From: Squalus acanthias
Taxonomy: Eukaryota
Assembly (NCBI GenBank): GCA_030390025.1
Contig: CM059431.1
Span: 146,446,001 to 146,510,000 of the forward strand
DNA: 64,000 nt
Direction of reading: 5' to 3'
In this document: one piece after another, positions 3,001 through 48,200 of the stretch
How the letters are laid out: the number at the start of each line of letters is the position of its first letter
Numbering within the stretch: position 1 is the stretch's first letter
Translations under genes and position numbers: made by a program
The notes under the pieces: model-generated
What the model saw: the letters and a program-made list of their open reading frames with translations, nothing else
What the model was told of the DNA's origin: nothing
The model's database searches: none

Positions 3001-4425
3001 ATGGGGCGACCAACTATTCTTCTGACAAAAGAGATTTACTACGCGATTCTCGCAACTGTCGGGGTCCCCGGTGTGCCATTGTAACCTGATTGTTGTTAAT
3101 CGGTGTTAACTGTCTCCCTGTTCATACAGCATGTTGGATAATGTAACGTGTATTGTCGGTGGCAGCGTTACAGTCGGTAGTGACTGGAACCAACTATTGA
3201 ACCGCGTGTCCACACTTTCTAGGTTCCCTTATTCCGCTAACTTTAATGATGTCACAATGTTCTATGAAGGTCCAACACATGGATTTTAGCGGATTTCCGG
3301 ACCGTCTTGTCCCCTCGTGCAGAGTGAGCGCTGCAGCAGCCCATTAAAATGTATGGGTGGGTTTCCCAGGTAATGGCTCCAATACTAATCCTGTTCTCAC
3401 ACTGCTCCGTGTGGATAATCAAACTGAATGGAGTAAAATGCTCTCCACAGGGATCTCCGTATATATTTCAATCAGACACTGGGACATTATTTCTCTCCTC
3501 TCTCTTTCTTACAGCGAACTTGGTGACAATTGTGATTCTTTACCGAGTAAACTGCGGCCTTTCCAAATGTATCTCTGTCTACATGGTGGCCATGGCAACA
3601 GCAGATCTACTGGTCCTGATCTTCAATGTAATGGTGTATTATATTTTCAGTTATCACTTTCCCTTTTCATTCCTGTCCCACACTCCCGTGTGTAGGTTCA
3701 ATATATACATGACTGGTGTCACCCTCGATTTGTCTGTTTGGTTCACTGTCGCCTTCACATTTGACCGATTTATTGTTATCTGCTGCCAGAAGTTTAAAAC
3801 ACAATATTGCACCGAGAGAACCGCGGTCGCGGTTGTAACAATGTTCTCGGTCCTGATCTTATTAAAGGACATCCCCATTTTGTTTGCATTTGAACCTCAG
3901 CAAATAATTAACAAGGTGCAGTGGGGCTGCCGATCAAGTGCGGCTTTTTTCTCCTCACCTCTTTGGGCAGCGCAGCTCTGGTTTCACAGCGCCTCGGTCG
4001 TTTGGCTTCCTTTTACTTTAATTGCCTTGTTTAATTCTTTGACAGTCAGACGTATTTTAGTGGCCAGCAGAGCCCGGACGGGACTCCGGGCTCACAGGAT
4101 TGAGAAACAGAGTGATCAAGAGATGGAGAACCGAAGGAAGTCCATCATTTTACTCTTCGCTATATCGGGCAGTTTTATATTGTTGTGGCTGACAACTGCC
4201 GTGACTTTGGTAACTACCAGACTGACAAACACCACTAACTACCGAGGCGACCGCACAGACCCTGGATATATCGCCACTGAAACCGCAGCTCTGCTCAGGT
4301 ATTTGACTTCCTGTCTAAACCCGTGTATTTATGCAGCGACCTAGAGTAAATTCAGAGAAGAGCTGAAGAAGGTGCTGAAATCTCCTTGGGCACTCATTCA
4401 GAGATTAGTTAGAAAACGATATTAA
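3001..4425 (+). pseudogene. GPR139/GPR142-like class A GPCR; exon 1 3001-3070, intron 3071-3514, exon 2 3515-4425; premature TAG at 4342-4344
   Basis: Exon 1 MGRPTILLTKEIYYAILATVGVP joins in phase 1 (G|GT ... pyrimidine tract ACAG|CG) to ANLVTIVIL; YMVAMATADLL, TFDRF, LPF..FN, NPCIY motifs; frame continues past the TAG as SKFREELKKVLKSPW to TAA at 4423-4425. The ORF-track start at 3349 is intronic. Confidence 0.85.
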
Positions 4426-5429
4426 AAAGAATCGTCAAAAGAAAGCTTCTTCGTAACTGAAGCTCAATTTCAACTAAGTTTCCACCGTAGAATGTCCTTC
4501 TTTCCGGTAATGTGAAAAATGAATGAGTTCTTGTGTGAAAATTTCATCCATTTTTTAGCATAAATTTGATTTCTGCATTGCTTTTGTTTTTAACGCTTAT
4601 TTCACTGAGCAAACATAACCTATTCCTGCAAATTCAGCAAATTTCAAGTTCAGGGATCAAAGATAACAATGATGGGATTCAGCAGTGGTACATGTGGGCA
4701 ACAGAGGAATCCGCCTTACACTGCAAGTACTGGGATCGGGCGCGCCACTTTACAATCATCAATAAAGTTTCATTCTGTGCCGAAACAATCAAAGGTCTTG
4801 CGATCGCCGATATTGGTAACTTTCCTGGAAGTTTGGTGTGAATATTGCAGGCGTGGATCTCTCTATCGGACTCCATTCCTCATTGACAAACGGACTCGGA
4901 TCTTGTCCCGTGATCAGTGTTCGAATGGAGGAAATAGTTGGAACTCAGCTCATCGATGTGACCTTTCACCTCTTCTGTCCCAGATACTGATTTAAAATCT
5001 CTATTGTGCAATGACTGGTGTCTCTCACTCAGCACAAAGATGGAGTCTGCTCTTGGTTTGAGCTGCGGATAAAAGTATCATGAGTAATATTATTGATATT
5101 CCGTCTCAATCAGCCTCCCAAACAAAATGGTAAAGGAATGTAAAATGAATGATTTTTCATAAAATTAATATTTATTACATTAGTTGCAACTTACCTGTAA
5201 AAATAAAGCTCCTAGAAATTCAGAAGAAATAAAACTGATATTAAGTATGCTGTGTTTGTCTGAACATTTGCAGACGGTCAGAAAGAATCTTTGGTCATTA
5301 TCGTCTTATTATGCGGTTACAATTTGTCCCAAATAATAATTGAAAACTACCAGCAACTTTGAATCAGTTACAAATTGTTCATCGGTGATCTCGCCTGATT
5401 GAGCGAGGAACGACAAGGAATGGGAGCAG

Positions 5430-9320: not shown

Positions 9321-9378
9321 GAGTGTAATGATGCAGGGCAACCAGTGAAGGTCCTTTAGTGACGCTGGTTCTACAGGA

Positions 9379-9451
9379 GCCCGGATAGCTCAATTGGTAG
9401 AATATCAGACCTTTAATCTGACAGTCCAGGGTACAAGTCCTCATCCCTCAC
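9379..9451 (+). pseudogene. tRNA-Lys(TTT) pseudogene
   Basis: GCCCGGATAGCTCAATTGGTAGA...TCAGA CC TTT AA TCTGA...CCAGGGTACAAGTCC; T-loop mutated and 3' acceptor strand lost. Confidence 0.8.
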
Positions 9452-9494
9452 ATTCATGCAGTAACGTAAAACTCTGATTATTTAATGATGGCAA

Positions 9495-10145
9495 CAGGAG
9501 TACACCATTTAGGCCTTCGATTCTGTTCTGCCATTCAATGAGATCTGTGACAAAACTCCCTTTGCACCAGATTCCTTAATACCTGTGGTTAATATCAATC
9601 AATCAAAGTTTAACAATTGACCCAACATTAGCTGCTGTTTGTGGAAGTGAGATTCAAATTTCTACTACCCATTCCATGGAGAAGTCTTTCCTAATTTCAC
9701 TCCTGCAAAGGCTTGGACCTAATCTTTAGGCTGTGTCCCCTAGTCCTAGACTCACCAATTATCGGAAATAGCTTTTCTCTATCTACCCTATCAGTTCCCC
9801 TTAATATCGTGAATACTTCAATCATATCACCCCTTAAGCTTCTAAATTCCAGTGATTACAACCCTAGTTTTTTGCAATCTCCCTTTGTAATTGAACCCTT
9901 AGACTCTATGTAATATTCTGGTAAATCTACGCTTCACTCTTTAATCCTAATACTACCTTCCGAAGGTGTAATGCCCATAAGTGAACACAATATTCCAGGT
10001 GTGGTCTATCCAGGGCTTTGTATAGCTGTAGCTTAATTTCTCCCCCTTATACTGTAATCCTATAGATATAAATACCACCATTCAATTAGCCTTTTTGATT
10101 ATTTTATCTACCTGTCCATGACAATTTAATGATAAATGTGCAAGG
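9495..10145 (-). mobile_element. CR1 3' fragment
   Basis: Reverse complement matches the CR1 ORF2 end and 3' UTR seen elsewhere in the window. Confidence 0.75.
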
Positions 10146-10156
10146 CTATTTACGTG

Positions 10157-10221
10157 GGCGTGGTGGACAAACGGTAAGTCTTGTAAACCGAAGAGAGCGG
10201 GTTCGATCCCCGTCCGTGACT
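10157..10221 (+). pseudogene. tRNA-Thr(CGT)-family pseudogene with a 7-nt deletion; anticodon now TGT
   Basis: GGCGTGGTGGACAAACGGTAAG[GCGTCGG missing]TCTTGTAAACCGAAGAGAGCGGGTTCGATCCCCGTCCGTGACT versus vertebrate tRNA-Thr(CGT). Confidence 0.8.
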
Positions 10222-19887: not shown

Positions 19888-20400
19888 CAATGTGTTCAGT
19901 TCTGGTCACCGCACCTTTGGACGGGTTTATTAGCCTTGGAGGGAGTGCAGCCTAGATTTACCGGAATGATACATAGACTCCAAGGGTTAAATTACGAGGA
20001 GAGATTACTCAAATTAGGGTTGTATTACCTGGAATTTAAAAGCTTAAGGGGTGATTTGATTGAAGTATTCAAGATATTAAAGCGAACTGATAGAGCAGAT
20101 AGAGAGAAACTGTTTCCGATGTTCTAGGACGAGGGGGCAGAGTCTAAAAAATAGAGCCAGACCTTTCAGGAGTGAAGTTCGGAAACACTTCTACATGCAA
20201 TGGGTGGTAGACATTTGTAACTCACTTCCGCAATCTGCAGTTGATGCTGAGTCAATTGTTAATTTTAAACATGATCGTTTTTTGTTAACCTCCGGGATAT
20301 CGGGAAAAGGGATATAAATGGAGTTGGGTCACAGATCACACATGATCTAATTAAATGGCGGAACAGGCTCAAGGGTGTAAATGGCTCACTCCTGTTCCTA
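19888..20400 (+). mobile_element. CR1 3' end
   Basis: CVQFWSPH and LRGDLIEVFKI followed by CR1 3' UTR. Confidence 0.85.
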
Positions 20401-20470
20401 TAATGAGTGTGAAATGATCGTGTTTCAAGGTGCTGCACGCAAGTGGAGATGAGAATCGTGATTTAAAAAA

Positions 20471-20535
20471 AGCCCGAATAGGGACTTGAACCCTGGACCC
20501 TCAGAATAAAAGTCTGCCGACTGAGCTATCCGGGC
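20471..20535 (-). pseudogene. tRNA-Lys(TTT) pseudogene with an 8-nt D-arm deletion
   Basis: GCCCGGATAGCTCAGTCGG[8 nt missing]CAGACTTTTATTCTGAGGGTCCAGGGTTCAAGTCCCTATTCGGGC, followed by a T7 run. Confidence 0.85.
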
Positions 20536-20905
20536 TCTGCTACCGACACGCAAAACAACGACTTTCATTGGCTCACGTACTGCATTACACACTCAACCAA
20601 TTGCATTTGACTCCAGTAATCCCGCCTCTACAGCGCATTTCTCTCACAAACGTAGACTGACTGACTGCTTCACATCAGGAACAGTCTCCCTCCCACAAAG
20701 GACACGCTCTTTAACAGCGGCCTCAGATGGGAAAACGGAGGTGTCAGTTTGTTACAGTAAATACATGAGGGCATCTGGCGCTTCTCTCCCTGACACTAGG
20801 GAACTAGTGAGACAGACTTTACAGCAAGGTTCTGTTTATTGTGAAAAAGCAAAGAAAATATTGTGACGGAATTATCCAGACTCCAATCAACGCTAAAAAG
20901 AACTT

Positions 20906-20978
20906 TGACCCCGACGTGATTTGAACACGCAGCCTTCCTGATTTAGAGTCAGACGCGCTACCGTTGCGCCACGAGGTC
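20906..20978 (-). tRNA. tRNA-Trp-derived gene with CTA (amber) anticodon; candidate suppressor or young pseudogene
   Basis: GACCTCG TG GCGC AACGGTA GCGC G TCTGA CT-CTA-AA TCAGG AAGGCT GCGTG TTCAAAT CACGT CGGGGTC A; all four stems pair; T5 terminator 7 nt downstream. Confidence 0.85.
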
Positions 20979-21351
20979 ATAACAACCCGCCGAAATAAAG
21001 CAGTAAACTGCTCAGAATACACAACAGGTGGTGCAGTTTCCGAAAAACAATTAAACTTTCGGCGTGTAGACAGTAGTTAGAACTACAAACAAGGCCATGT
21101 GAAAATATAAACAGTGGGTGTGTATACAAAATCATAGAAACTCACAGCACAGAAGGAGGACATTCGGCCCGTCGTGCCTTTGCTGGCTTAGAAAGAGCAG
21201 CCGTGCTGTATTTCCATATTAGTCCAACCAAAGTGCATCACTTCACTCTTCTCCGCATTGACCTCCATCTGCCATGCTTCTGTCCATTTCACCATCCTGT
21301 CTGTTTCATCCTGAAGTCGACAACTATCCTCATCATTATCTATCATCTATT

Positions 21352-27316: not shown

Positions 27317-27491
27317 GGTGTGTCTGCACTGTGCGGGACCAGACAGTCTCTGTGTGTCTACAATCAATTTCCCATTCTTTAATTTGGAAATGTGAAACTG
27401 ATCGTGAGCATTTGCTATTCCGGTCGCAGAAATCTGAAACTTAACTCGCTGACACCCTGGTTTAGGGAATCTTGCTGCAACACGCCTTGTA

Positions 27492-27537
27492 GTCTGTGTA
27501 GCGCGTTCGGTTGGTGGTTCGAGCCCACCCAGGGACG
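27492..27537 (+). pseudogene. tRNA-Asn remnant with D-arm and anticodon-arm deletions
   Basis: TAGCGCGTTCGG fused to TTGGTGGTTCGAGCCCACCCAGGGACG, the intact tRNA-Asn 3' part. Confidence 0.8.
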
Positions 27538-28498: not shown

Positions 28499-30070
28499 TG
28501 CTGTGTTAATCCCTGGGTATTCCTGTCCAGCTGTGCTAGTCCCTGGGTATCTCTGTCCACCTGAGCTACTCCCTGGGTATCCCTGTCCAGCTGCGCCAGT
28601 CCCTGGGTATCCCTGTCCAGCTGTGCCATTCCCTGGGTATCCCTGTCCAGCTGTGCCATTCCCTGGGTATCCCTGTCCAGCTGCGCCAGTCCCTGGGTAT
28701 CCCTGTCCAGCTGCGCCAGTCCCTGGGTATCCCTGTCCAGCTGTGCCATTCCCTGGGTATCCCTGTCCAGCTGTGCCATTCCCTGGGTATCCCTGTCCAG
28801 CTGTGCCATTCCCTGGGTATCCCTGTCCAGCTGTGCCATTCCCTGGGTATCCCTGTCCAGCTGTGCCATTCCCTGGGTATCCCTGTTCAGCTGTGCTAGT
28901 CCCTGGGTATCCCTGTCCAGCTGTGCCATTCCCTGGGTATTCCTGTCCAGCTGTGCCTGTCCCTGGGTATCCCTGTCCAGCTGTGTCATTCCCTGGGTAT
29001 CCCTGTCCAGCTGTGCCATTCTCTGTGTATCCGCGTCCAGCTGTGCCAGTCCCTGTGTATCTCTGTCCAGCTATGCAAATCCCTGGGTATCCCTGTCCAG
29101 CTGTGCCATTCCCTGGATATCCCTGTCCAGCTGTGCCAGTCCCTGGGTATCCCTGTCCAGCTGTGCCATTCCCTGGGTATCCCTGTCCAGCTGTGCTTGT
29201 CACTGGGTATTCCTGTCCAGCTGAGCTGGTCCCTGGGTATCTCTGTCCAGCTCTGCTAGTCCCTGGGTATCTCTGTTCAGCTGTGCTTGTCACTGGGTAT
29301 TTCTGTCCAGCTATGCTAGTCCCTGGGTATCCCTGTCCTGCTGTGCTAGTCCCTGGGTATAACTGTCCAGCTATGCTGGTCTTTGGGTATCCCTGCCCAG
29401 CTGAGCTAGTCCCTGGTTATCTCGGTCCTGCTGTGCTGGTCCCTGGGTATCCCTGTCCATTTCTGCAAGTCCCTGAGTATCACTGTCCAGCTGTGCTTGT
29501 CTTTGGGTATCCCTGTCCAGTTGTGCTATTCGCTGGGTATCGCTGTCCAGCTGAGCTAGTCCCTGGTTATCTCTGTCCATCTGAGCTAGTCCCTGGGTAT
29601 CTCTGTCCATCTGTGCTAGTCCCTGGGTATCCCTGTCCAGCTGTGCTAGTCCCTGGGTATCTGTCCATCTGAACTAGTGCCTGGTTATCCCTGTCCAGCT
29701 GTGCTAGTGCCTGGGTATCCCTGTCCAGATGTGCTGTTGCCTGGGTATCACTGTCCAGCTGTGCTAGTCCCTGGGTATCTCTGTCCAGCTGTGCTAGTCC
29801 CTGGGTATCTCTGTCCGGCTGTGCCATTCCCTGGGTATCCCTGTCCATCTGAGCTAGTCCCTGGGTATATTTGTCCAGCTGTGCCATTCCCTGGGTATCC
29901 CTGTCCAGCTGTGCTGATGCCTGGGTATCTCTCTTCAGCTGTGCTAGTCCCTGTGTATCCCAGTCCATCTGAACTAGTCCCTCTGTATCCCTGTCCAGCT
30001 GAGTTAGTCCCTGGGTCTTTCTGTCCAGCTGTGCTTGGCCCGGGCGATCCCTGTCCAGTTGAGCTAGTCA
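28499..30070. repeat. 30-bp minisatellite, about 52 units
   Basis: Unit ccctgggtatccctgtccagctgtgc(c/t)a(g/t)t; homogeneous at left, diverged at right. Confidence 0.95.
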
Positions 30071-30342: not shown

Positions 30343-33300
30343 AGAGTCATAGAGTTACACAGCACAGAAAGAGGCCCTTCGTTCCATCGTGTCCGCGCCG
30401 GCCATCAAGCCCTGTCTATTCTAATCCCATTTTACATAAGAACATAAGAAATAGGAGCAGGAGTAGGCCAATTGGCCCCTCGAGCCTGCTCCGCCATTCA
30501 ATAAGATCATGGCTGATCTGATCCTAACCGCCAATCTACTATCACAGAACCATCTCCTGAACGTAGCAGAATTGGACACACGAAATAGGAGCAGGATCAG
30601 GCTACACGGCCCCTGGGCCCGCTGCGCTACCCACAGGGCAATGACCAATCCGAACATAGACTCATGTCCGAATTCCTGCCCGCTCCCCGTAACCCTTAAT
30701 TCCCTTTACTTCTAGGAAACTGTCTATTTCTGTTTTAAATTTATGTAATGATGTAGCTTCTACAGCTTTTTGGGGCAGCATATTCCATGGACCTACCACG
30801 CTCTGAGTGAGGTAGTTACTTCTCATCTCAGTTTTGAAAGAGCAGCCCCTTATTCTAAGACTATGCCCCCTAGTTCTAGTTTCACCCATCATCGTGAACA
30901 TCCTCCCCGCATCCACCCGATCCAACCCCTTCACAATCTTAAATGTTTCAATAAGATCGCCTCTCATTCTTCTGAACTCCAATGAGTAGAGTCCCAATCT
31001 ACCCAACCTCTCCTCATCTGTCCATCCCCTCATCCCCGGGATTAACCGAGTGAACCTTCTTTGTACTGCCTCGAGAGCAAGTATGTCTTTTCTTAAGTAT
31101 GGACACCAAAACTGTATGCCGTATTCCAGGTGCGGTCTCACCAATACCTTGTACAACTGAAGCAATAGCTCCCTATTTTTATATTCTATCCCCCTAGCAA
31201 TGAAAGCCAACATTCCATTGGCCTTCTTAATCACTTGCTGCACCTGCATACTAACCTTTTGAGTTTCGTGCACCAGGACCCCCAGATCCCTTTATACTTC
31301 AGTACTTTCCAATTTCTTGCCATTAAGATAATAACTTGCTCTACTATTTTTCCTGCCAAAGAGCATAACCTCACACTTTCCAGTATTGTAATCCATCTGC
31401 CAAATCTCTGCCCACTTACTTACCTGTCTATGTCCCCTTGCAGATTTTTTATGTCCTCCTCACTCACTACTTTCCCTCCCATCTTAGTATCATCTGCAAA
31501 CTTTGATACGTTACACTCGGTCCTCTCCTCCAAATCGTTAATATAGATTGTAAAGAGTTGGGGACCCAGCACTGACCCCTGCGGAACACCACTCGTTACT
31601 GATTGCCAGTCTGAGAATGAACCATTTATTCCAACTCTCTGCCTTCTGTTAGATAGCCAATCCTCTATCCATGCCAGAATATTACCCCCAATCCCGTGAT
31701 TTTTTCTCTTAAGCAATAATCTTTTGTGTGGCACCTTGTCAAATGCCTTTTGGAAGTCTAAATATACCACATCCACTGGTTCCCCTTTATCCACCCTGTA
31801 TGTTACTTCCTCAAAGAACTCCAGCAAATTTGTCAAACATGACTTCCCCTTCATAAAACCATGCTGACTTTGTCCTATTAAATTATGATTATCCAAATAT
31901 CCCGTTACTGTCTCCTTAATAATGGACACCAAAATTTTACCTACCACAGATGTTAGGCTAACCGGTCTATAGTTTCCAGCCTTCTGTCTACTGCCCTTTT
32001 TAAATAAGGGTGTTACATTAGCAGTTTTCCAGTCTGCCGGGATCTTTGCTGAGTCCAGGGAGTTTTGGAAAATTATTACCAATGCATTCACAATCCCTAC
32101 CGCCACTTCCCTCAAGACCCTAGGATGTAAGCCATCAGGTCCAGGTGATTTATCTGCCTTGAGTCCCATTATTTTACCGAGTACCACTTCCTTAGTGATT
32201 TTGATCGTGTTTAGCTCCTCCCCCCCATAGCCCCCTGTTTGTCCAGTGTTGGGATATTCGTAGTGTTCTCTACCGTAAAGACTGAAACAAAATATTCATT
32301 CAGTGTATTTTCCATCTCCATATTTCCCACCATTAATTTCCCGGTCTCATCCTCTAAGGGACCAACATTTACTTTAGCCACCCTTTTTCTTTTTATATAA
32401 GTATATAAACTCTTACTACCTGTTTTTATATTTTTTGCTAATTTACTTTCATAATCTATCTTCCCTTTCTTAATCAATCTTTTTGTTATTTTTTGCTGTC
32501 TTTTAAAGTTTTCCCAATCCTCTATCCTCCCACTAGATTTGGCTACCTTATAAACCCTTGTTTTTAGTCGAATACTATCCTTAGTTTCTTTACTTAGCCA
32601 CGGATGACCGTCTTTTCTTTTACACCCTTTTCTTCTCAGTGGAATATATATTTTTTGGAAGTTGTAAAATAACTCCTTAAATGTACACCACTGATCATGT
32701 ATCGTCTTACCCTTTAATCTATTTTCCCAATCCACTCTACTCAATTCCGCTCGCATACCTTCATAGTCTCCTTTATTCAAGCTTAGCACGCTTGTTTGAG
32801 ATCCAACCTTCTCACCCTCTAATTGAATATGGAATTCAACCATGTTATGGTCACTAATTCCAAGGGGATCCTTTACTAGGACATTTTTAATTAATCCTGT
32901 CTCATTACACAGGACCAGATCTAAGGTTGCTTGCCCCCTGGTCGGGTCAGTTACATACTGCTCAAGAAACCCATCCCTAATACACTCAATGAACTCATCC
33001 TCAAGGCAGCCCTGCCCAATTTGATTTGTCCAATTAATATGATAGTTAAAATCCACCATAATTATAGATGTTCCCTTATTACAAGCCTCAACTATTTCCT
33101 GATTGATACTCCGTCCAACAGAGTTGCAACTGTTCAGAGGCGTATAGACTACGCCCACTAGTGTTTTTCCCCCCTTATTATTCCTTATCTCCACCCAAAC
33201 TGTTTAATTATTCTGATCTTTTGACCCAATATCATTTCTCTGTATTACAGTGATTCCTTCCTTTATTAACATAGCCATCCCACCTCCCCTTCCTTCCTGT

Positions 33301-35198
33301 CTGTTCTTCCTGATCGTTAAATAACCTGGTATGTTTAATTCCCAGGCATTGTCACCCTGCAGCCATGTTTCTGTAATGGCCACATGATCATACCCATATG
33401 TAGTTATTTGTGCAATTAACTCGTCTGTTTTGTTACGAATGCTACGTGCATTCAGATAGAGAACTTTCAAGTATGTTTTGTGACACTTAGTTCTTGCTTT
33501 TACCCTTTTTATTACTTTACCTTTTACTCCATGCATTCTGCCCCTTCCTGCACTTGGTACATAGCCTTGTAAGCTATGGCGTTTCAAGTGCTCATCTAAA
33601 TGCTTCTTGAATTTTGTGAGGGTTCCTGCCTCTACCACCCTTTCAGGCAGTGAGTTCCAGATTCCAGCCACCCTCTGGGTGAAAAAGTTTTTCCTCAAAT
33701 CCCCTCTAAACCTCGCCCCTTACCTTGAAACTATGCCCCCTGGTTATTAACCCGTCTACTAAGGGGAAAAGTTCCTTTCTATCTACCCTATCCATGCCCC
33801 TCATAATTTTGTGCACCTCAACCAGGTCCTCCCTCAGACTTCTCTGCTCTAAGGAAAACAACCCCAGCCTGTCCAGTCTCTCTTCATAGCTGAAGCGCTG
33901 CAGCCCAGGGAACATCCTGGTGAATCTCCTCTGCACACTCTCCAATGCAATCACATCCTTCCTATAGTGTGGCGACCAGAACTGCACACAGTATTCCAGC
34001 TGTGGCCTAACTAACGTTTTGTACAGCTCCAGCATAACCTCCCTGCTCTTTGATTCTATGCCTCGGCTAATGAAGGCAAGTATCCCATATGCCTTTTTAG
34101 CCACCTTATCTACATGTCCTGCTGCCTTCAGGGATCTATGTACATGCACACCAAGGTCCCTCTGATCCTCTGTCTTTCCTAGGGTCCTACCATTCATTGT
34201 GTATTCCCTTGCTTTTTTAGTCCTCCCAAAATGCATCAACTCACACTTTTCAGGTTTAAATTCAATTTGCCACTGCTCTGGCCATCTAAATAACCCGTCT
34301 ATATCGTCCTGTAGCCTGAGGCTTCCCTCCTCGCTATTTACCACTCCACCAATTTTCGTGTCATCTGCGAACTTACTGATCATACCTCCTACATTCATAT
34401 CTAAATCTTTAATGTAAACTACAAACAGCAAAGGACCCAGTTCCGATCCCTGCGATACACCACTGGACACAGGCTTCCAGTCACAAAAACAACCTTCGAC
34501 CATCACCCTCTGCCTCCTGCCACTAAGCCAATTTTGGATCCAATGTGCCAAGTTGCCTTGGATCCCATGTGCTCTTACCTTCTTGACCAGTCTCCCATGC
34601 GGGGCTTTTTTCAAAAGCCTTACTGATGTCCATGTAGACCACATCAACTGCACTACCCTCATCCACACACCTAGTCACCCCTTCAAAAAATTCAATCAAA
34701 TTGGTCAGACATGATTTCCCCCTGACAAAGCCATGCTGACTATCCTTGATTAATCCTTGCCTCTCCAAATGGAGAGTAATTCTGTCCCTCAGAACTTTTT
34801 CCAATAATTTCCCTACCACTGATGTTAGGCTCACTGGCGTATAATTCCCTGGTTTATCCCTACTACTTCTTGAATAATGCTACTATGTCAGCTGTTCTCC
34901 AGTCCTCTGGCACCTCCCCTGTGGCCAGAGAGATTCTTAAAATTTGTGTCAGAGCCCCTGCAATCTCCCCCCTTGCCTCACACTGCAGCCTGGGATACAT
35001 CTCGTCTGGGCCTGGGGATTTATCCACTTTTAAGCCCGCTAAAACCGCTAGTATCTCCTCCCTCTCAATACTAATTTGTTCAAGTATATCACAATCCCCC
35101 CGCCTGATTTCTATGCCTACATCGTCCTTCTCCATAGTGAACACAGATGCAAAATATTCATTTAAAACCCCGTCTACATCTTCTGGCTCTACACACAG
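30343..35198 (-). mobile_element. 5'-truncated CR1 (family A) whose 3' UTR is split by a nested CR1; own sequence 30343-30432 and 33550-35198
   Basis: RT motifs in ORFs 34863..35204, 34523..34834 and 33706..34668 (FADDTKIG); UTR ctaatcccatttt continues as cctgcacttgg after the insert. Confidence 0.85.
30433..33550 (-). mobile_element. CR1 family B, nearly complete ORF2 (APE plus RT), frameshifted, nested in family A
   Basis: ORFs 33204..33698 (part), 32211..33194, 31420..32187, 30662..31273; (acataaga)n tail at 30433. Confidence 0.92.
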
Positions 35199-36770: not shown

Positions 36771-37882
36771 GAAATAATTTTATTTCCTTTCGATTGAAGA
36801 CAGGAAAAGCCAGGACATGCCACGAGATAGGAATCCTATTTCAGTCATGGAAAGACATCTAAAATCACGTAGTGTAAATTAAAAATCATGGTTACAATGT
36901 CTTTCGGTGTAAAAGGAGCGGATTGAAAATAACAATAAACTGCCAGGCAGCGCCCGCGGTGACACAAATTCGAACTCCTGATGAAATTGGTGCTGTGAAG
37001 TAGGCACTAAGCTAAAGCTTACCCCGATCAAAGGCAAATAAAATACTAAATATAAAGGATGAGCTTACAATATCAGGTGCTTAAATTACTTCTATAAATT
37101 TGAAAATGAGGACCATGTGTTTTGTGTTCACGAGTGACTTCATTTCCCCTGTTTGACCGGCAGGTTTGCAATTCACTTTGCATTCTATACTGAAGAGAAT
37201 CTCATTTCAAGATGAGGGCAGAACCTACCACGTTAAAAGCCACCGACTTGTATAATGGAAAATAGAGTTTGTTCCAACACCTGTGCTACCTGAGCCTTTC
37301 AATGCTTTCAACGGGTAATGATTGATGATGCTTGTAATTCACATCCTGTGAAGAATGGGAGAGGAGAATGGAACATGGTGCATGAACATCAGAGAATGTG
37401 CTGAATGGGAGCAGAGAAATACTCCCACCTCACTGAAATATGTCGACCAGTATTCTAAATAAGGCGCGTGTCTACAATGAACGAGTGAATACATTCGTTG
37501 CCCAGTTTTAATCTAAATGGCACTGAGGTTCCAACAGAAAGGTTTCCTGGAAAAGATCTGCTGCAGTTTTAGGATTGGTGAACTTGTTTGATAACTTTAA
37601 AACAGTGGCGATTGTTGAGTTCGACTAGTGGAGCTTAGAAATGTTTTATAATTATCAGGAGAGATGATTGCGGCTCGGTGAATCAGCTTTCACTTTCTGA
37701 AATGTATTTTTTCTTCGTTCACAGGTCAGTGCAAATTATTTTTTGCCTTCCGACTAAAGACGCGAAAAGCCGAGACATTTATTGTTTTCAACACGGCGGC
37801 TGAATTGGCCGGTATGCCACGTGACAAGAGTCGTTTCTGAATCATTTCAAGTTGGCTTCCAAAAATCACCGAGTGCTAATAT

Positions 37883-38020: not shown

Positions 38021-38066
38021 AATCATGGTTACAGTTTGGTCAGTGTAAAAGGAGTAGATTGAAAAA

Positions 38067-38102
38067 ATCAGAAGGCTGCGTGCGCAAATCGTGTCTGGGT
38101 CA
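38067..38102 (+). pseudogene. tRNA-Trp 3' half remnant with duplicated flank
   Basis: ATCAGAAGGCTGCGTGCGCAAATCGTGTCTGGGTCA; downstream flank homologous to that of the 20906 gene. Confidence 0.65.
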
Positions 38103-38408
38103 GAACTGTTTTCAGCGTTGACAGAAGTCTGGATAATTCCGCAAGAATACTTTCGTTGCTTTTTCACAATAGGTTTGTGTCTGTTACACTAAATAAACGA
38201 GGGCATCAGGCGCTTCTCTGCATGACACTGGGGAACTAGTGAGACAGATTTTACAGCAAGGTCCTAGTTAGTTTGAGGAAAACCAAATCAAATATTACAG
38301 AGCGTGGTCGCAGATGAAGGTCTCACCACATCTTTGTGAAAAAATAAGAACAAGATAAAAGTGCCGCCAGCTGCAAGAGGGATGGTGTGAGGCATTATCG
38401 CTCCCCGC

Positions 38409-40667
38409 CCCGTGCTCCATCCTTTTTCCTTACACCGTTATCACAGGACAGGGTCCCGTGCTCCATCCATTCTCCTTACACCCTTATCACAGGACAGGGT
38501 CCCGTGCTCCATTCTTACACCGTTATCACAAGACAGGGTCCCGTGCTCCATCCTTTCTCCCAGCACCGTTATCACAGGACAGGGTCCCGTGCTCCATCCT
38601 TACACCGTTATCACAGGACAGGGTCCCGTGCTCCGTCCTTTCTCCTCACACCGTTATCACAGGACAGGGTCCCGTGCTCCATTCTTACACCGTTATCACA
38701 GGACAGGGTCCCGTGCTCTATCCTTTCTCCTCACACCGTTATCACAGGACAGGGTCCCGTGCTCCGTCCTTTCTCCTCACACCGTTATCACAGGACAGGG
38801 TCCCGTGCTCCATTCTTACACCGTTATCACAGGACAGGGTCCCGTGCTCTATCCTTTCTCCTCACACCGTTATCACAGGACAGGGTCCCGTGCTCCATCC
38901 TTACACCGTTATCACAGGACAGGGTCCCGTGCTCCGCCCTTTCTCCTTACACCGTTATCACATGGGGACCTGCTCGATGGCAGAGGAGCGGGCTGGATGG
39001 CGCCGGAGGAGTTGGCGAGGCGCATGTCATGGATCAACGTCCGGATCGCAGTGAAAGCCATTGAGTCGCTAAAAGTGGCACTGGGCCCCGTCTCCACTAG
39101 GTGTGTCGAGGAGGCTCAAGCACGTGGGGCGATCCCGTCCGAACTGACCCCCGTTCGGACGGAATTCCTTATCGGTGCCCGGCCCCGAATCCTTCCTCGG
39201 GAGCCGCCGCCTCACCACTTGAGCCTTCTCGGAGAAATGCCCTCCGTGCCCTTTCAATCCGCACGGAGGTGTTTTCTGTACGGGCTGCTCCTGCACACTC
39301 TCCACTTTGCCATCTTCGTCTGCCGTCTGGACACGCCTTGGCATACCATCTTGCCGTCCGGTGGAGGCGAAGGTCCCCAATGGAGGGCTCTCTACGCGGG
39401 TGTCTTCCCTTGTTCTATTGGGGACTTGGCCTGGAGGGTGCTGCACGGAGCAGTCCCGTGCAATAGGGTTTTAAATAGGTTCACGGACTCCCGGGCTGCT
39501 TGCCATTTCTGCGGCCTGGAGGAGTCCGTTTTTCACATATATATGGAGTGTGAGAGGTTACAGCCCCTCTTTCATTATTTGAGGGGGCTGCTCCTCAATT
39601 TCTGGTTGCACTTCAGCCCCAAGCTCCTGATCTACGGTCACCCGGTACGGAGGGGAGCGGGCAGGTCGGAGGACCTCCTCGTAGGACTGCTCCTGGGCCT
39701 GGCCATGAAGGCCATTAATTGGTCCAGGCAGCGGGTGGTCGAGGGGGTCGTTCGGCCCGATTGCCTGCCTCTCTTTCGCGGCCATGTTCGCGCCCGGGTG
39801 GCCCTGGAGATGGAGCACGCGGTGTCCGCCGGCACGCTTGAGTTTTTCCGCGACCGGTGGGCGCCGCGGGGACTGGAGTGCATCGTCACCCCGGGCTACC
39901 AAATTTTAATTTGATTTATTAAGTTTCATTTAAAGTTTTAATTGATTTACAGTGATTTGGTTCTGTCCAACCAAAAAGAGTTACACCGTTATCACAGGAC
40001 AGGGTCCCGTGCTCCATCATTTCTCCTTACACCGTTATCACAGGACAGGGTCCCGTGCTCCATTCTTACACCGTTATCACAGGACAGGGTCCCGTGCTCC
40101 ATCCTTAAACCGTTATCACAGGACAGGGTCCCGTGCTCCGTCCTTTCTCCTCACACCATTATCACAGGACAGGGTCCCGTGCTCCATCCTTTCTCCCAGC
40201 ACCGTTATCACAGGACACTGTCCCGTGCTCCATCCATTCTCCTTACACCGTTATCACAGGACAGGGTCCCGTGCTCCATCCTTTCCCCTTACACCGTTAT
40301 CACAGGCCAGGGTCCCGTGCTCCATCCTTTCCCCTTACACCGTTATCACAGGCCAGGGTCCCGTGCTCCATCCTTTCTCCTTACACCGTTATCACAGGAC
40401 AGGGTCCCGTGCTTCGTCCTTTCTCCTTACACCGTTATCACAGGACAGGGTCCCGTACTCCATCCTTACACCGTTATCACAGGACAGGGTCCCGTGCTTC
40501 GTCCTTTCTCCTTACTCCGTTATCACAGGACAGAGTCCCGTGCTCCATCCTTTCTCCTTACACCGTTATCACAGGACAGGGTCCCGTGCTTCGTCCTTTT
40601 ATCCGAGCACCGTTATCACAGGACAGGGTCCCGTGCTCCGTCCTCTCTCCTTACACCGTCATCACAG
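38409..40667. repeat. Minisatellite of mixed 46- and 39-bp units, interrupted by a Tx1 element
   Basis: ccgtgctccat(cctttct)ccttacaccgttatcacaggacagggtc. Confidence 0.95.
38963..39980 (+). mobile_element. 5'-truncated Tx1/L1-clade non-LTR retrotransposon, ORF2 C-terminus open to 39914
   Basis: DLAWRVLHGAV and CHFCGLEESVFHIYMEC zinc knuckle; ends ccaaaaagag; 16-bp duplication ttacaccgttatcaca at 38947-38962 and 39981-39996. Confidence 0.85.
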
Positions 40668-43600
40668 GATTGCTACCAGTGCCACGTGCTAGTCATAGTA
40701 GAAATAGGAGGATATTTCAAATGAATACGTGGCTAGAGGAATGGTGCAAGGGGGAGGGATTCAAATTCCTGGGACATTGGAACCGGTTCTGGGGGAGGTG
40801 GGACCAGTACAAACCGGACGGTCTGCACCTGGTCAGGCCCGGGATCGCTGTCCTAGGGGGAGTGTTTGCTAGTGCTGTTGGGGAGAGTTTAAACTAAAGT
40901 GGCAGGGCTTTGGGAATCTGAGCAGGGAGACAGAGGAAAGCGTGTCAGGAAGGGATAGAGGTATGGAGTAAAAGGTAAAGTGTTAAAAAAGGAAAAAGCA
41001 GGAACTAAGTGTCACAACACATATTTGAAAGTTCTTTATCTGAATGCACGTAGCATTCGTAACAAAATGGACGAGTTGCCGGCACAAATAACTACGTATG
41101 GGTATGATCTTGTGGCCATTATAGAAACATGGCTGCAGAGTGACAACGACTGGGAATTAAATATGCCAGGGTATTTAACAATCAGGAAGGACATGCAGGA
41201 AGGAAGGGGAGGTGTGGTGGCTATGTTAATAAAGGAAGGAATCAGTGTAATACAGAGAAATGATATTGGGTCAAAAGATCAGGATAATGAAACAGTTTGG
41301 GTCGAGATAAGGAATAATAAGGGGAAAAAAACACTAGTGGGAGTAGTATATAGGCCTCCTAATAGTTGCAACTCTGCTGGAAGCAGTATTAATCAGGAAA
41401 TAGTTGGGGCATGTAATAAGGGTACAGCTATAATTATGGGGGATTTTAACTATCATATTAACTGGACAAATCAAATTGGGCAGGGCAGCCTTGAGGAAGA
41501 GTTTATTGAGTGTATTAGGGATGGATTTCTTGAGCAGTATGTAACTGATCCTACAAGGGGGCAAGCAACCTTGGACATGGTCCTGTGTAATGAGTCAGGA
41601 TTAATTAATAATGTCCAAGTTAAGGATCCCCTTGGAATGAGTGACCATAACATGGTTGAATTCCATATCCAATTCGAGGGTGAGAAGGTTGGTTCTCAAA
41701 CAAGCGTACTGAGCTTGAATAAAGGAGACTTAGATGGTATGAGAGCGGAATTGATTAAAGTGGACTGGGAAACTAGATTAAAGGGTAAGACGGTACATGA
41801 GCAGTGGTGTTCATTTAAAGAGTTATTTTACAACTTTCAAAAAAAAAATATTCCACTGAGGAAAAAAGGGTGTAAAATAAATGACAGCCATCTGTGGCTA
41901 AGTAAAGAAATTAAGGATAGTATCCGACTAAAAACAAGGACATATAAGGTAGCCAAACTTAGAGGGAGGATAGAAGATTGGGAAGTCTTCAAAAGACAGC
42001 AAAAAGTAACTAACGGATTGATTAAGAAAGGGAAGATAGATTATGAAAATAAATTAGCAAAAAATATAAAAACAGATAGCAAGAGTTTCTATAGTTATAT
42101 AAAAAGAAAAAGGGTGGCTGAGGCAAACGTAGGTCCCTTTGAGGATGAGACCGGGAAATTATTGGTGGGAAACATGGAGATGGCAAAAATGCTGAACAAA
42201 TATTTTGTTTCAGTCTTTACGGTAGAGGACACTAAGAATATCCCAACACTGGACAAACAGGGGGCTCTAGACGGGGAGGAGCTAAATACGAATAACATCA
42301 CTAAGGAATTGATACTCAGTAAAATAATGAGACTCAAGGCGGATAAATCCCCTGGACCTGATGGCTTACATCCTAGGGTCTTGAGGGAAGTGGTAGTAGG
42401 GATTGTGGATGCTTTGGTAATAATTTTCCAAAATTCCCTGGACTCAACAAAGGTCCCGGCAGATTGGAAAACTGCTAATGCAGCACCCTTATTTAAAAAG
42501 GGTAGCAGGCAGAAGGCTGGAAATTATAGACCAGTTAGCCTAACATCTGTGGTGGGTAAAATTTTGGAGTCTATTATTAAGGAGACAGTAACGGAACATT
42601 TAGACAAACATAATTCAATAGGACAAAGTCAGCATGGCTTTATGAAGGGGAAGTCATGTCTGACAAATTTGCTTCCGTTCTTTGAGGACATAACATACAG
42701 GGTGGATAAAGGGGAACCAGTGGACGTAGTGTATTTAGACTTCCAGAAGGTATTCGACAAGGTGCCACATAAAAGATTATTGCTCAAGATAAAAAATCAC
42801 TGGATTGGGGGTAATATTCTGGAATGGGTGGAGGATTGGTTATCTAACAGATAGCAGAGAGTTTGGATAAATGGTTCATTCTCGGACTGGCAACCAGTAG
42901 CCAGTGGTGTTCCGCAGTGGTCGGTGCTGGGTCTCCAACTCTTTACAATCTATATTAACGATTTGGAGGAGGGGACCGAGTGTAAAATATAAAAGTTTGC
43001 AGATGATACAAAGATGGGACGGAAAGTAGAAAGTGAGGAGGACATAAAAAACCTACAAGGTGATATAGACAGGCAGGGTGAGTGGGCGGAGATTTGGCAG
43101 ATGCAATACAATATTGGAAAATGTGAGGTTATGCACTTTGGCAGGAAAAATCAGAGAGCAAGTTATTATCTTAATGGCGAGAAACTGGAAAGTACTGCAG
43201 TACAAAGGGATCTAGGGGTCCTAGTGCAAGAAAATCAAAAAGTTAGTATGCAGGTGCAGCAGGTGATCAAGAAGGCCAACGGAATGTTGGTTTTTATTGC
43301 TCGGGGATAGATTATAAAAACAGGGAGGTATAGCTGCCGTTATATAAGGTATTGGTGAGACCGCACCTACAATACTGCGTACAGTTTTGGTGTCCATACT
43401 TAAGAAAAGACATACTTTTTCCCGAGGCAGTACAAAGAAGGTTCACTCGGTTAATCCCGGGGATGAATTGGGGACATATGAGGAGAGGTTGAGTAGATTG
43501 GGACTCTACTTATTGGAGTTCAGAAGAATGAGAGGCGATCTTATTGAAACATATACGATTGTGAAGGGGCTTGATCGGGTGGATGCGGTAAGGATGTTCC

Positions 43601-44027
43601 CAAGGATTGGTGAAACTAGAACTGGGGGCCATAATCTTAGAATAAGGGGCTGCTCATTCAAAACTGAGATGAGAAGGAACTACTTCACTCAGAGGGTGGT
43701 AGGTCCATGGAATATGCTGCCCCAGGAAGCTGTGGAAGCTACATCATTAAATAAATTTAAAACAGAAATAGACAGTTTCCAAGAAGTAAAGGGAATTAGG
43801 GGTTACGGGGAGCGGGCAGGAAATTGGACATGAGGCTGAGTTCGGATCGGTCAAGGCCCTGTGGGTGGCGGAGCGGGCCCAGGGGCTGAGTGGCCGGGAC
43901 CTGCTCCTACTTCTTGTGTTGTTTAGATTTGAGGTTAGGATCAGATCAGCCATGATCGTATTGAATGGCGGAGCAGGCTCGAGGGGCCGATTGGCCTACT
44001 CCTGCTCCTATTTCTTATGTTCTTATG
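40666..44027 (+). mobile_element. CR1 family B: end of ORF1, full-length ORF2 region (624 aa open, then stops), 3' UTR
   Basis: DGLHL; YLNARSIRNK, YRPPN, SDHN, DFQKVFDKVPH, FADDTK; tail ttcttatgttcttatg. Confidence 0.93.
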
Positions 44028-44111
44028 ACAGGGTCACATCGCTCCGGTTCTGGGGCTGGTGGGGGCGCATCCCTGCCCGCGCTGTGTGTCTTTGTGATTC
44101 TCCGATCTGTC

Positions 44112-44583
44112 AGTAAATCCTTTCATGAGGATCTATTGGAGGGTAAGTCTGGGACCAGCAGCCGCCGTAATTCCAGCTGGAATCGTCTATATTAAAGCTG
44201 CTGCAGTTAAAAAGCCGTGAGTTAGATCTTGGGATGGAGCTGCTGGTCGGTAGTGAGACGAGCGACCTCCTGTCGCAGCTCTGGCCTCTGGGCGCCCCCT
44301 TGATGCTCTTCTCTGAATGTCCTGGGGTTCGAAACGTTACATTTCAAATACAGTTTCCACAGCAGGCCGGGAACCTGAACACTCCACCTGGAGTAATGGA
44401 ATAGGACTCTGGGTCTGTGTTGTCGGTTTGGGGAACTGGGACCGTGATTCAGAGGGACGGTCAGGTCCAGTCATATTGGGCTACTAGAAATAAAATTCTT
44501 GGACTGCTGCAAGATCAAAAATGTGAAATCACTTTCCACAAATATTCTCATTAATCAAGAATGAAAGTCGGAAGTTCAAAGAC
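44112..44583 (+). pseudogene. Decayed 18S rRNA fragment (helix 18 region through V4)
   Basis: gaggatctattggagggtaagtctgggaccagcagccgccgtaattccagct and cattaatcaagaatgaaagtcggaagttcaaagac match conserved 18S motifs with many substitutions. Confidence 0.88.
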
Positions 44584-45290
44584 AACAACTTGCATTTATA
44601 TAGCGCCTTTAACACTATAAAACATCCACTGGAGCTTCACAGAAACCTGATCCGATGAATATCGAGCCCGATCCAAAGAGCACTGCTTGTGGGAGGTGAG
44701 GGCCGTGGGAGCGGAGGGAAAGAGTTTAAAGAATTTCAGTTCGCAGTGGAGACAATAAGCTCGGGGGTAACTTCGCTCTCCAGGGTGATCCTGGAATAAT
44801 GAACAGTTTTGTCTGAGGAGAGCAGGGCTCGATAGTGCTTATTGTGGTTCAGGCAGACCTGCCGATGGTTGGCTGAACCAGGTGTGTGCCGGATATGATC
44901 CCGTCTCTTTGCCTTGAAATTTACTAAGTGAAGATGGGGCCATAGCAGAAGGACCGGCTTCGGTAGGAGACAGTAAGGACGTAAATGGTGAACAGGTCAT
45001 TAATGGGGCAGGGGAACATCGACAACAACAGAAGGATCGTGGCCACGGCGGACCGTTGGCAGATTGAAAGTGCAATTGTAAATTATATGGGGATAGTTGG
45101 TTGAAGCCGCAGAGACAAACATAAGCGACTGAGGAAAATGGGTTGTGAAGGATGCTTGGAAGTGATCGGGAATGATCAGTCTTTTGTACAGCCAGTAAGA
45201 TTAGACCGGCCAGTGAGATGGCAAAGTCGAGAGGGAGGTCGTGAATATAGCTGGGAGACTTTATATGAGAAGCATTGAGGGAATTCTGGA
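44584..45290 (-). mobile_element. L2 LINE fragment(s)
   Basis: Starts with aacaacttgcatttatatagcgccttta, the reverse complement of the L2 tail; the inner extent is uncertain. Confidence 0.55.
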
Positions 45291-45294
45291 GGGC

Positions 45295-48200
45295 AGGGTA
45301 ATAGGATCACCACAAGTAACATTCGATTAGTGTCACCAAAAATAATATTAGAATAGAGTCAGCATGAACAATGTTAGTGTAAGGTCAACACCAGTTATCT
45401 TAGAGTAGGGTCACCACCAGTAATATTGGAGCCGGGTCACCACAAGTAATGTTAGAATAGAGTCAGCATGAACAATGTTAGTGTGAGGTCAACACCAGTA
45501 ATATTGGAGTAGGGTCACCTCCAGTAATATAAGAGTCGGGTCACCACAAGTAATGTTAGAATAGAGTCACAATGAACAATGTTAGTGTAAGGTCAACACC
45601 CGTAATCATAGATTAGGGTCACCACCAGTAATGTTAGAGTAGAGTCACCACCAGTAATGTTAGAGTAGGGTCACCACCAGTAATGTTAGAGTAGGGTAAC
45701 CAAAAGTAATGTTAGAGTAGAGTCACCATCAGTAATGTTAGAGAAGGGACACCACCAGTAATGTTAGAGTAGGGTCACCACCAGTAATGTTAGAGTAGGG
45801 TCACCACCAGTAATTTTAAATTAGGGGCACCACCAGTAATGTTAGAGTAGGTTCACCACCTGTAATTTTAGAGTAGATTCACCATCAGTTATGTTAGAGT
45901 AGGGTCACCACCAGTAATGTTAGAGTAGGGTCACATCCAGTAATATAAGAGTAGAGTCAACATCAGTAATGTTAGAGTAGGGACACCATCAGTAATGTTA
46001 GAGTAGGGTCACCACCAGTAATGTTAGAGTAGGGTCACCACCAGTAATGTTAGAGTATGGTCACCACCAGTAATTTTATATTAAGGTCACCACCAGTAAT
46101 GTTAGAGTAGGGTCACCACCAGTAATGTTCGAGTAGGTTCACCATCAGTAATGTTAGAGTAGGGTCACCACAAGTAATGTTCGAGTAGGTTCACCATCAG
46201 TAATGTTAGAGTAGGGTCACCACCATTAAAGTTAGAGTAGGGTCACCACCAGTAATGATAGAGTAGGGTCACTACCAGTAGTGTCAGAGTAGATTCACCA
46301 CCAGTAATGTTGGAGAAGGGTCACGAACAGTAATGTTAGAGTAGAGTCATCCACAATTAATGTTAGAGTAGAATCACCACCAGTAATGTTATAGTAGAGC
46401 CACCACCAGTAATGTTGGAGTAGGGTCTCCACCAGTAATGCTAGAGTAGGGTCACCACCAGTAATGTTAGATTAGGGTCACCACCAGTAATGTTAAAGTA
46501 AGGTCACCACCAGTAATGTTAGAGTAGGTACACCACCAGTAATGTTAGAGTAGAATCACCACCAGTAATGTTATAGTAGAGTCACCACCAGTAATGTTAA
46601 AGTAGGGTCACCACCAGTCACGTTAGAGTAGGGTCACCACCAGTAATGTTGCAGTAGCTTCACCACAAGTAATGTTAGAGTAACTTCACCACCAGTAATG
46701 TTACAGTAGGGTCACCACCAGTAATGTTAGAGCGGGTTCACCACCAGTAACGTTAGTGTAGGGTCACCACCAGTAATGTTGGAGCAAAGTCACCGCAAGT
46801 AATGTTAGAGTTGGGTCACCACCAGTAAGGTGAGAGTAGGGTCACCATCAGTAATGTTAGAGTAGGGTCACCACCAGTAATGTTAGAGTAGGGTCACCAC
46901 CAGTAATTTTATATTAGGGTCACCACCAGTAATGTTAGAATAGAGTCACCATGAACAATGTTAGTTTAAGGTCAACACCAGTAATCATAGATTAGGGTCA
47001 CCACCAGTAATGTTAGAGTAGGGTCACCACCAGTAATGTTAGAGTAGGGTCACCACCAGTAATTTTATATTAGGGTCACCACCAGTAATGTTAGAATAGA
47101 GTCACCATGAACAATGTTAGTGTAAGGTCAACACCAGTAATCATAGATTAGGGTCACCACCAGTAATGTAGAGTAACTTCACCACCAGTAATGTTACAGT
47201 AGGGTCACCACCAGTAATGTTAGAGCGGGTTCACCACCAGTAAAGTTAGTGTAGGGTCACCACCAGTAATGTTGGAGCAAGGTCACCGCAAGTAATGTTA
47301 GAGTGGGGTCACCACCAGTAAGGTGAGAGTAGGGTCACCATCAGTAATGTTAGAGTAGGGTCACCACCAGTAATGTTAGAGTAGGGTCACCACCAGTAAT
47401 TTTATATTAGGGTCACCACAAGTAATGTTAGAATAGAGTCATCATGAACAATGTTAGTGTAAGGTCAACACCAGTAATCATAGATTAGCGTCACCACCAG
47501 TAATGTTAGAGTAGAGTCACCACCAGTAATGTTAGAGTAGGGTCACCACCAGTATTGTTACAGTAGGGTAATCACCAGTAATGTTAGAGTAGAGTCACCA
47601 TCAGTAATGTTAGAGTAGGGACACCACCAGTAATGTTAGAGTAGGGTCACCACCAGTAATGTTAGAGTAGGGTCACCACCAGTAATTTTAAATTAGGGGC
47701 ACCACCAGTAATGTTAGAGTAGGGTCACCACCAGTAATGTTAGAGTTGGGTCACCACCAGTAATTTTATATTAGGGTCACCACCAGTAATGTTACAGAAG
47801 GGTCACCACGAGTAACGTTAGAGTAGGGTCACCATCAGTATTGTTAGAGTAGGGTCAACACCAGTAATGTTAGAGTAGGGTCACCACCAGTAATGTTAGA
47901 TTATGGTCACCACCAGTAATGTTAGAGTAGGGACACCACCAGTAATGTTAGAGTAGATTCACCACCAGTAATGTTAGAGTAGAGTCACCACCAGTAATGT
48001 TAAAGTAGGGTCACCACCAGTAATGTTAGAGTAGGGACACCACCAGTAATGTTAGAGTAGATTCACCACCAGTATTGTCAGAGTAGAGTCACCACCATTA
48101 ATGTTAAAATAGGGTCACCACCAGTCACGTTAGAATAGGGTCACCACCAGTAATGTTGCAGTAGCTTCACCACAGGTAATGTTAGAGTAACTTCACCACC

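Follow-up and report, generated by a model that had tools for sequence, protein, structure and literature searches.

A tRNA-Trp Gene with an Amber Anticodon

The 64,000-nucleotide stretch of Squalus acanthias DNA analysed here, referred to as the window, carries on its minus strand a tRNA-Trp-derived gene whose anticodon is that of an amber-reading tRNA. The gene was delineated by Rfam, by ARAGORN and by comparison with 14 animal copies; its parts, with the boundaries of the A and B boxes following the established tRNA numbering, are as follows:

20906..20978, minus strand: tRNA-Trp-derived gene of 73 nt with amber (CTA) anticodon, cloverleaf, G1:C72 and A73
20961..20971, minus strand: A box (positions 8-19), same as in reference tRNA-Trp
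20944..20946, minus strand (TAG on the plus strand): CTA anticodon, derived from CCA by C35>T; its 7-nt loop has C32 and U33
20943..20943, minus strand: A37 (G37>A), resulting in A36-A37-A38
20937..20938, minus strand: doubled G closing the anticodon stem; one of the two is an insertion, which one being ambiguous
20918..20926, minus strand: B box (positions 53-61), same as in reference tRNA-Trp
20895..20899, minus strand: T5 terminator for RNA polymerase III, preceded by a 6-nt trailer

The gene scores 62.3 bits with Rfam model RF00005 (gathering threshold 29, E 4.1e-11) with zero non-standard pairs flagged, and at default settings ARAGORN calls it as the sole gene in the window, under the label "tRNA-Pyl (cta)". 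An A box, a B box and a downstream run of at least four T give it the make-up of a Pol III type 2 gene; a scan for sigma-70 promoters and terminators stayed at chance level and is irrelevant to Pol III. Compared to animal cytosolic tRNA-Trp(CCA), the acceptor, D and T arms, both boxes, G1:C72 and A73 are the same; the acceptor, D and T stems are intact, as in the cloverleaf of a functional tRNA-Trp, and A73 together with G1:C72 is what functional animal cytosolic tRNA-Trp carries. The gene differs in having CTA, A37 and one extra junction base, that is, it has neither the CCA anticodon nor the G37 (m1G37) and 72-nt length of a functional tRNA-Trp; CUA in a 7-nt loop with U33 is, in terms of sequence, the hallmark of an amber suppressor. 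With the extra G, either a U.G wobble takes the place of the U27-A43 pair and the variable region has 6 nt, or a bulge forms. Within the window the CTA-bearing Trp gene is present as a single copy; the N count of the window is zero.

Comparison with Animal tRNA-Trp(CCA)

As a reference, metagenome contigs were queried with a 32-nt 5′ piece of the gene, which yielded 15 loci (L001-L015); 14 of them are one identical 72-nt tRNA-Trp(CCA) and the remaining one is cut by the end of its contig. The same piece had no match in the genome contig set and none in the viral contig set. CCA followed by G37 is found in all 15 loci and CTA in none. Four differences separate the shark gene from this reference, namely C35T, G37A, the extra G and T47C; C47 is also present in human chr12.trna6 (PMC6379413 supplement 5) and in the window's own Trp paralogue (see below), so it is a normal isodecoder state and three changes, not four, are derived. 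The body is identical to animal tRNA-Trp at 69 of 72 positions, with all eight CpGs of the reference kept. G37 is also found in all six human Trp bodies (PMC6379413 supplement 5), and both G37A and the extra G depart from states that are fixed in 15/15 metagenome and 6/6 human Trp bodies.

The initial annotation had described a tRNA-Trp body with CTA at 20944-20946 that differs from vertebrate tRNA-Trp by only three changes, all at the anticodon arm, with stems, A and B boxes, CpGs and T5 terminator preserved. All of this was confirmed, by the RF00005 score and the 69/72 match for the body, by T47C being a normal isodecoder state for the number of changes, and by the 8/8 CpGs and the T5 at 20895-20899 for the rest; the anatomy of 20906-20978 in the assembly sequence is real. 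A search of sequencing runs with the region 20400-21130 speaks neither for nor against it: part of the region is present in 20 of 23 runs, half of its 71 words in none, and the best share is 0.25; no RNA run is among those listed as containing it.

Other tRNA Copies and a Duplicated Trp Locus

Further tRNA-like sequences and pieces of a second Trp locus were found in the window:

20471..20535, minus strand: tRNA-Lys(TTT) pseudogene, 34.8 bits (Rfam), with an 8-nt D-arm deletion and three substitutions
9377-9446, plus strand: broken second tRNA-Lys, 23.5 bits over 9383-9446
10149-10221, plus strand: broken Thr-like tRNA, 24.3 bits over 10157-10221 (Thr label from relaxed ARAGORN)
near 27468-27537, plus strand: tRNA relic, labelled Tyr by ARAGORN, which we take to be Asn-derived
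38067-38102, plus strand: 3′ half of a tRNA-Trp
38067..38171, plus strand: rearranged paralogue consisting of this 3′ half, which has five substitutions, no inserted G, and C47, and of a homologous 3′ flank
38171..38296, plus strand: homologue, in inverted orientation, of the spacer between Trp and Lys (20739-20862), 82.5% identity
36008..36132, minus strand: homologue of the Trp upstream flank (20998-21121), 73.6% identity, no adjoining tRNA

The output of ARAGORN at relaxed thresholds was mostly noise. Among the tRNAs found in the window, none besides 20906-20978 is intact, and the earlier statement that all other tRNA genes are wrecked is true of each one; the contrast it was meant to draw is weaker than it seems, because the Lys pseudogene, located 370 bases downstream on the same strand, carries four events in 73 nt versus three in 72 nt for the Trp gene. 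The lesions of the Lys gene were determined by eye against human Lys chr11.trna5 and by alignment to the second Lys copy, and the event count leaves out one difference common to that copy. The Lys gene owes its death to one event being a deletion rather than to a much larger number of events; four versus three is the expectation if both genes of the cassette were released at about the same time. Of the four dead tRNAs (20471, 10149, 27468, 9377), three apparently lost their function through short internal deletions, with their B boxes kept.

The 3′ flank of the Trp paralogue differs from that of the Trp locus by 13 mismatches in 69 positions, and its 5′ side is joined to a copy of a vault-RNA 3′ flank (38022-38066, plus strand). 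Since this copy replaces the 5′ half, the paralogue offers no anticodon to compare; since it has no inserted G, the extra G at 20906 is derived. It was considered whether A37 predates the duplication, as the junction has six A and the vault flank accounts for four, but slippage fits equally well and the argument was left unused. The Trp locus is duplicated at a distance of 15-17 kb, split into three pieces, and one inversion has its breakpoint at 38171. Also, an old inverted duplication of about 75% identity comprises a Lys tRNA and a downstream LINE-like fragment (9377-9989, plus strand; 19891-20537, minus strand).

The Setting of the Gene

Other features of the window are:

3001-3070 and 3514-4426, plus strand: shark GPR139-like 7TM receptor gene (PF00001) of two exons, 16.5 kb from the tRNA gene
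36936-37024, minus strand: vault-RNA-like gene, 32.2 bits against a gathering threshold of 34, E 0.0037
30435-33550 and 40946-44027: pair of endonuclease-reverse transcriptase LINE copies in inverted orientation, 88.8% identical, one of which retains a 631-codon open frame
44038-44677, plus strand: decayed 18S rRNA fragment, 95.6 bits, adjoining the end of a 3.1-kb LINE copy
45302-54995, 61293-63954, 28500-30069, 1265-2441, 38409-38962 and 39981-40669: long minisatellites, their periods being 26, 27, 30, 49 and 46 nt; between the 46-nt arrays, at about 39.0-39.9 kb, lies a short remnant resembling a reverse transcriptase (labelled by eye)

The best 120 matches listed for the receptor gene are all shark proteins (61-79% identity), so the window is shark-like. 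Much of the rest is satellite, LINE fragments, the 18S rRNA fragment and the vault-like RNA; no intact host gene was recognised in the window, and nothing in it points to recoding of the genetic code.

The receptor gene is open save for one in-frame TAG (4342-4344), located just after the last helix and 27 codons ahead of the gene's stop. In 119 of 120 homologues this site is Gln, with a median of 29 more residues following, which makes the TAG an ordinary CAG>TAG lesion and rules it out as a target for Trp-rescue by the amber tRNA; a Trp- or Lys-inserting tRNA would not restore the protein. Further, a tRNA acts in trans and closeness to the receptor gene therefore brings it no benefit. The family is very large in sharks (1,981 hits), and the gene is either a recent pseudogene or a receptor clipped at its C-terminus. 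In the tRNA gene, C35T and G37A hit the two strands of a single CAG/CTG triplet (20943-20945, minus strand), each as a C>T change, and the nonsense change at 4342 (plus strand) is likewise a C>T in CAG; this coincidence is possibly due to chance.

Decay versus Constraint

The distribution of the three events was compared with what chance would give. That they fall within a 9-nt span has P=0.031 under uniform placement, a post-hoc value for a selected finding; that both substitutions miss the 42 paired positions has P 0.17, and that the three events miss all 16 CpG bases has P 0.07-0.017 if CpGs mutate 5-10 times faster. The absence of any altered stem pair, promoter base or CpG suggests a locus that is unmethylated or was recently under selection. 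Within the 36 nt shared with the paralogue, the Trp gene has one event and the paralogue five (P=0.11); the divergence of the flanks (13/69) predicts 6.8 events in the gene had it been free since the duplication, and three are observed (P=0.094). These weak signals fit a gene that was functional until fairly recently, or unmethylated DNA; they do not show selection of the amber form.

In mammals, CpG context predicts the activity of tRNA genes best, and high covariance scores of tRNA genes do not always equal expression (10.1101/661942). The CpG observed/expected ratio over the gene and 350 nt on either side is 0.76, which is within the top 10% of 1,265 windows, an excess that stems largely from the gene body. 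For the flanks the ratio is 0.66 upstream and 0.64 downstream, values that 26-29% of 350-nt windows reach or surpass; upstream of clearly dead tRNA relics the ratio is higher (0.94 and 0.85). CpG context does not separate the amber gene from the dead relics.

How often would such a gene arise by chance? By calculation, about one in 40 tRNA-Trp copies with three random substitutions, 60% of them assumed to be transitions, would carry C35T. Tools for tRNA prediction return over 20,000 candidates in zebrafish (10.1101/2024.01.30.575011) and over 9,500 high-scoring tRNA-Ala-like repeats in the elephant shark (PMC8450103), and with thousands of tRNA-like loci in the genomes of fish and cartilaginous fish the chance appearance of a gene such as this one is expected. 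Sup-tRNA(TTA) was predicted in 21.65% of the eukaryote genomes surveyed (PMC9858662 section 3.2), and the authors of tRNAscan-SE 2.0 regard high scorers with a conflict of anticodon and body as "probably not functional", though not automatically as pseudogenes (PMC8450103).

The gene at 20906-20978 is thus probably a young pseudogene, a silent or poorly charged single copy that brings about no biologically meaningful UAG readthrough; this reading is favoured because its Lys neighbour is similarly lesioned, the other tRNAs are broken, and predictions of stop-anticodon tRNAs are common. That the only premature TAG nearby sits at a Gln and not at a Trp position also speaks for it. The options raised by the initial annotation, an assembly error among them, were the right ones and so was the anatomy; of these options, the young pseudogene has become the likelier and the candidate natural suppressor the less likely one. 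Its sequence, lesions, neighbours and paralogy show a tRNA-Trp(CCA) gene, changed by three local mutations, in a decaying Lys-Trp cassette that has been duplicated and rearranged and now sits amid LINE fragments and satellites. In the history we infer, the once functional Trp gene would have been under selection for part of the time and then released along with its Lys neighbour, the three mutations following after release; one of them, a simple C>T transition at position 35, produces the amber anticodon by coincidence. Some pre-tRNA may still be made, as the promoter boxes and the terminator are intact; the single copy would nevertheless be silent or poorly charged, the C35 determinant having been lost, A37 gained and the hinge between anticodon stem and variable loop lengthened.

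Could the Gene Be a Tolerated Suppressor?

Rather unlikely, though the strongest of the alternatives, is a low-level natural amber suppressor that is tolerated: it would be transcribed, receive i6A37 from TRIT1 and be charged by TrpRS or LysRS at reduced efficiency, with readthrough that is neutral or mildly harmful and unselected. The intact A and B boxes, the T5 following after 6 nt, the full set of CpGs and the CpG ratio of 0.76 agree with transcription, but the gene body contributes most of this last excess.

The anticodon change as such would be no obstacle. With C35T alone, five of six human tRNA-Trp isodecoders increased UAG readthrough 185-278-fold in a HEK293 reporter, the degenerate sixth only 2.2-fold (PMC6379413 supplement 4), and the UAG versions outperformed the UGA ones about tenfold (PMC6379413); vertebrate synthetases thus tolerate the change. 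In yeast, plants and archaea, C35 is a determinant for TrpRS (PMC9976931). The residue which a Trp amber tRNA inserts depends on the host, being Trp in yeast, Lys in Arabidopsis and Gln in E. coli (PMC9976931), so none of these results carries over directly to a shark. The anticodon loop of the shark gene has become identical to the one in an engineered human Lys amber tRNA, and a plant tRNA-Trp(CUA) is mischarged by LysRS (PMC9976931), which would be in line with charging by LysRS.

The effect of A37 may go either way. i6A37 boosts decoding 3-4-fold in Schizosaccharomyces pombe, and G37A makes human tRNA-Tyr a substrate of TRIT1, which prefers C32 (PMC7200024); C32 is present in the amber tRNA. 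The simple A36-A37-A38 rule is limited to substrates without a YYA anticodon (PMC7200024), and CUA is such an anticodon. Furthermore, a review names A37, in combination with U28-A42, as a negative element of unmodified yeast tRNA-Trp for the bovine TrpRS (PMC9976931); the U28-A42 part does not apply to the amber gene. The initial annotation had relied on A36-A37-A38 as the motif for i6A37 addition, which raises suppressor efficiency; the literature on TRIT1 and i6A bears it out on the modification, whereas its view of G37A as purely helpful is one-sided, given the YYA limit and the bovine TrpRS.

As for the extra G, the one change that might break the structure, folding predictions, a weak guide as they treat the tRNA as unmodified, lower the share of the cloverleaf about tenfold, from 0.092 to 0.009. 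The cloverleaf energy is -24.2 kcal/mol versus -25.1 kcal/mol, an insertion cost of 0.9 kcal/mol, and the 5-bp and 4-bp registers of the anticodon stem are at -24.2 and -23.9 kcal/mol, since U27 can pair with G. The minimum-energy fold of the amber gene mispairs the anticodon arm; that of the reference tRNA-Trp is likewise not an exact cloverleaf. The insertion may be harmless, because yeast SUP4oc tolerates substitutions at 44, 45 and 47 as well as register shifts at this hinge of anticodon stem and variable loop (PMC4117946). Leaving the direction of the G37A effect aside, the molecule would probably be weaker than a suppressor with C35T only.

Concerning the organism, amber suppressors are reported to be well tolerated in transgenic mice (PMC8244042), and Sup-type groups are found among the tRNA-seq references of mouse and zebrafish, where mapping cannot split them from their parent isodecoders. 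In a variant of the tolerated suppressor, C35T would have come first and created a strong suppressor, which G37A and the extra G may later have weakened as second-site changes; the clustering within 9 nt fits this sequence of events, but it also fits a single multinucleotide mutation or chance in a selected finding. The similar lesion load of the dead Lys neighbour (four versus three), the repeat- and pseudogene-rich setting in which no intact tRNA or host gene was recognised, the adverse effect of A37 on bovine TrpRS and the YYA caveat for TRIT1 argue against tolerated suppression altogether. That the gene is an expressed and aminoacylated Trp-derived amber suppressor with an i6A37-type loop and measurable UAG readthrough in the living shark is quite doubtful.

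Relation to Known Systems

The closest known counterpart is the engineered human ACE-tRNA-Trp(UAG), with which the shark gene has the body and C35>T in common (PMC6379413). In contrast, ACE-tRNA-Trp(UAG) is plasmid-borne and retains G37 and a 5-nt variable loop, whereas the shark gene is one genomic copy with two further changes; judged by this analogy, it would at most be a natural ACE-tRNA-Trp(UAG) with two added changes. The residue inserted by ACE-tRNA-Trp was determined by mass spectrometry on the UGA form (PMC6379413). CCA>CUA changes in a Trp body are also known from E. coli, yeast and Arabidopsis, but those are laboratory mutants (PMC9976931); the tRNA-Trp bodies of yeast and E. coli have A37 as well (PMC7200024 Table 1).

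With the predicted "Sup" tRNAs of eukaryotes (PMC9858662, PMC8450103, PMC10787195, 10.1101/2024.01.30.575011) the gene shares a high-scoring body, a conflicting stop anticodon and the status of a prediction, and by its sequence it belongs with those candidates that tRNAscan-SE 2.0 would flag for anticodon/body conflict; the Sup figures given in the cited sections of these sources concern Sup-TTA and Sup-TCA, not Trp-derived Sup-CTA in sharks. The literature search, which covered few subscription papers, did not bring up any Trp-derived amber tRNA from sharks; GtRNAdb tables and bioRxiv supplements may hold Sup-CTA counts for cartilaginous fishes.

ENSURE, which excludes prediction-only entries, holds 86 validated natural suppressors from 25 species (PMC12807605). 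A stop-complementary anticodon that arose by a point change is common to these, for example the Gln tRNAs of ciliates, and to the shark gene; the ENSURE suppressors are expressed and proven stop readers, and both examples considered come from recoded genomes, while the shark gene is known by sequence. With the 4-bp-stem tRNA-Trp(CCA) of Blastocrithidia nonstop it has the weakened top pair of the anticodon stem in common, but the Blastocrithidia tRNA retains CCA and reads UGA; the amber gene, having CUA, is not a 4-bp-stem UGA reader.

Remaining Alternatives

The assembly could contain a consensus error or a rare allele of the one animal sequenced, with CCA in the true gene, which we regard as improbable. 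Three differences within 9 nt, including the extension of a run from G to GG, may be a pattern of local error; yet the absence of N, a 0.9-kb receptor exon without frameshift and the 631-codon LINE frame argue for good base accuracy, and polishing with reads from the many identical Trp genes would be expected to pull the sequence toward CCA.

Highly improbable is an adaptive suppressor, in which the amber anticodon was selected and then tuned by A37 (i6A) and the loosened top pair for the purpose of extending particular UAG-ending proteins or rescuing amber alleles, for instance that of the GPR139-like gene. All changes at the decoding arm, the i6A motif A36-A37-A38 and a two-exon receptor gene 16.5 kb away that is open save for one TAG speak for this scenario, but that TAG replaces a conserved Gln in a gene family of great size, and there is only one copy of the tRNA gene in the window. 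A pyrrolysine tRNA, finally, is refuted by sequence comparison, as the ARAGORN label follows the anticodon, the body is that of tRNA-Trp at 69/72 positions and not of the Pyl type, and the surroundings are shark-like.

What the Gene Would Mean

As a pseudogene, the reading preferred here, the shark gene is ordinary, as tRNA genes with stop anticodons are routine output of genome annotation. Were it expressed, it would matter, since validated natural suppressors derived from cognate tRNAs by mutation of the anticodon are few (PMC12807605), and according to a review it is still unclear how far a whole animal tolerates readthrough at normal stops (PMC8244042). It would then be a natural vertebrate counterpart of the therapeutic anticodon-edited tRNAs, and its two extra mutations would reveal how a vertebrate tunes or disarms a suppressor. 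Even a dead allele is a ready-made test of the effects of G37A and the extra G, as C35T alone makes a strong suppressor, and related sharks could reveal the order in which the three changes occurred.
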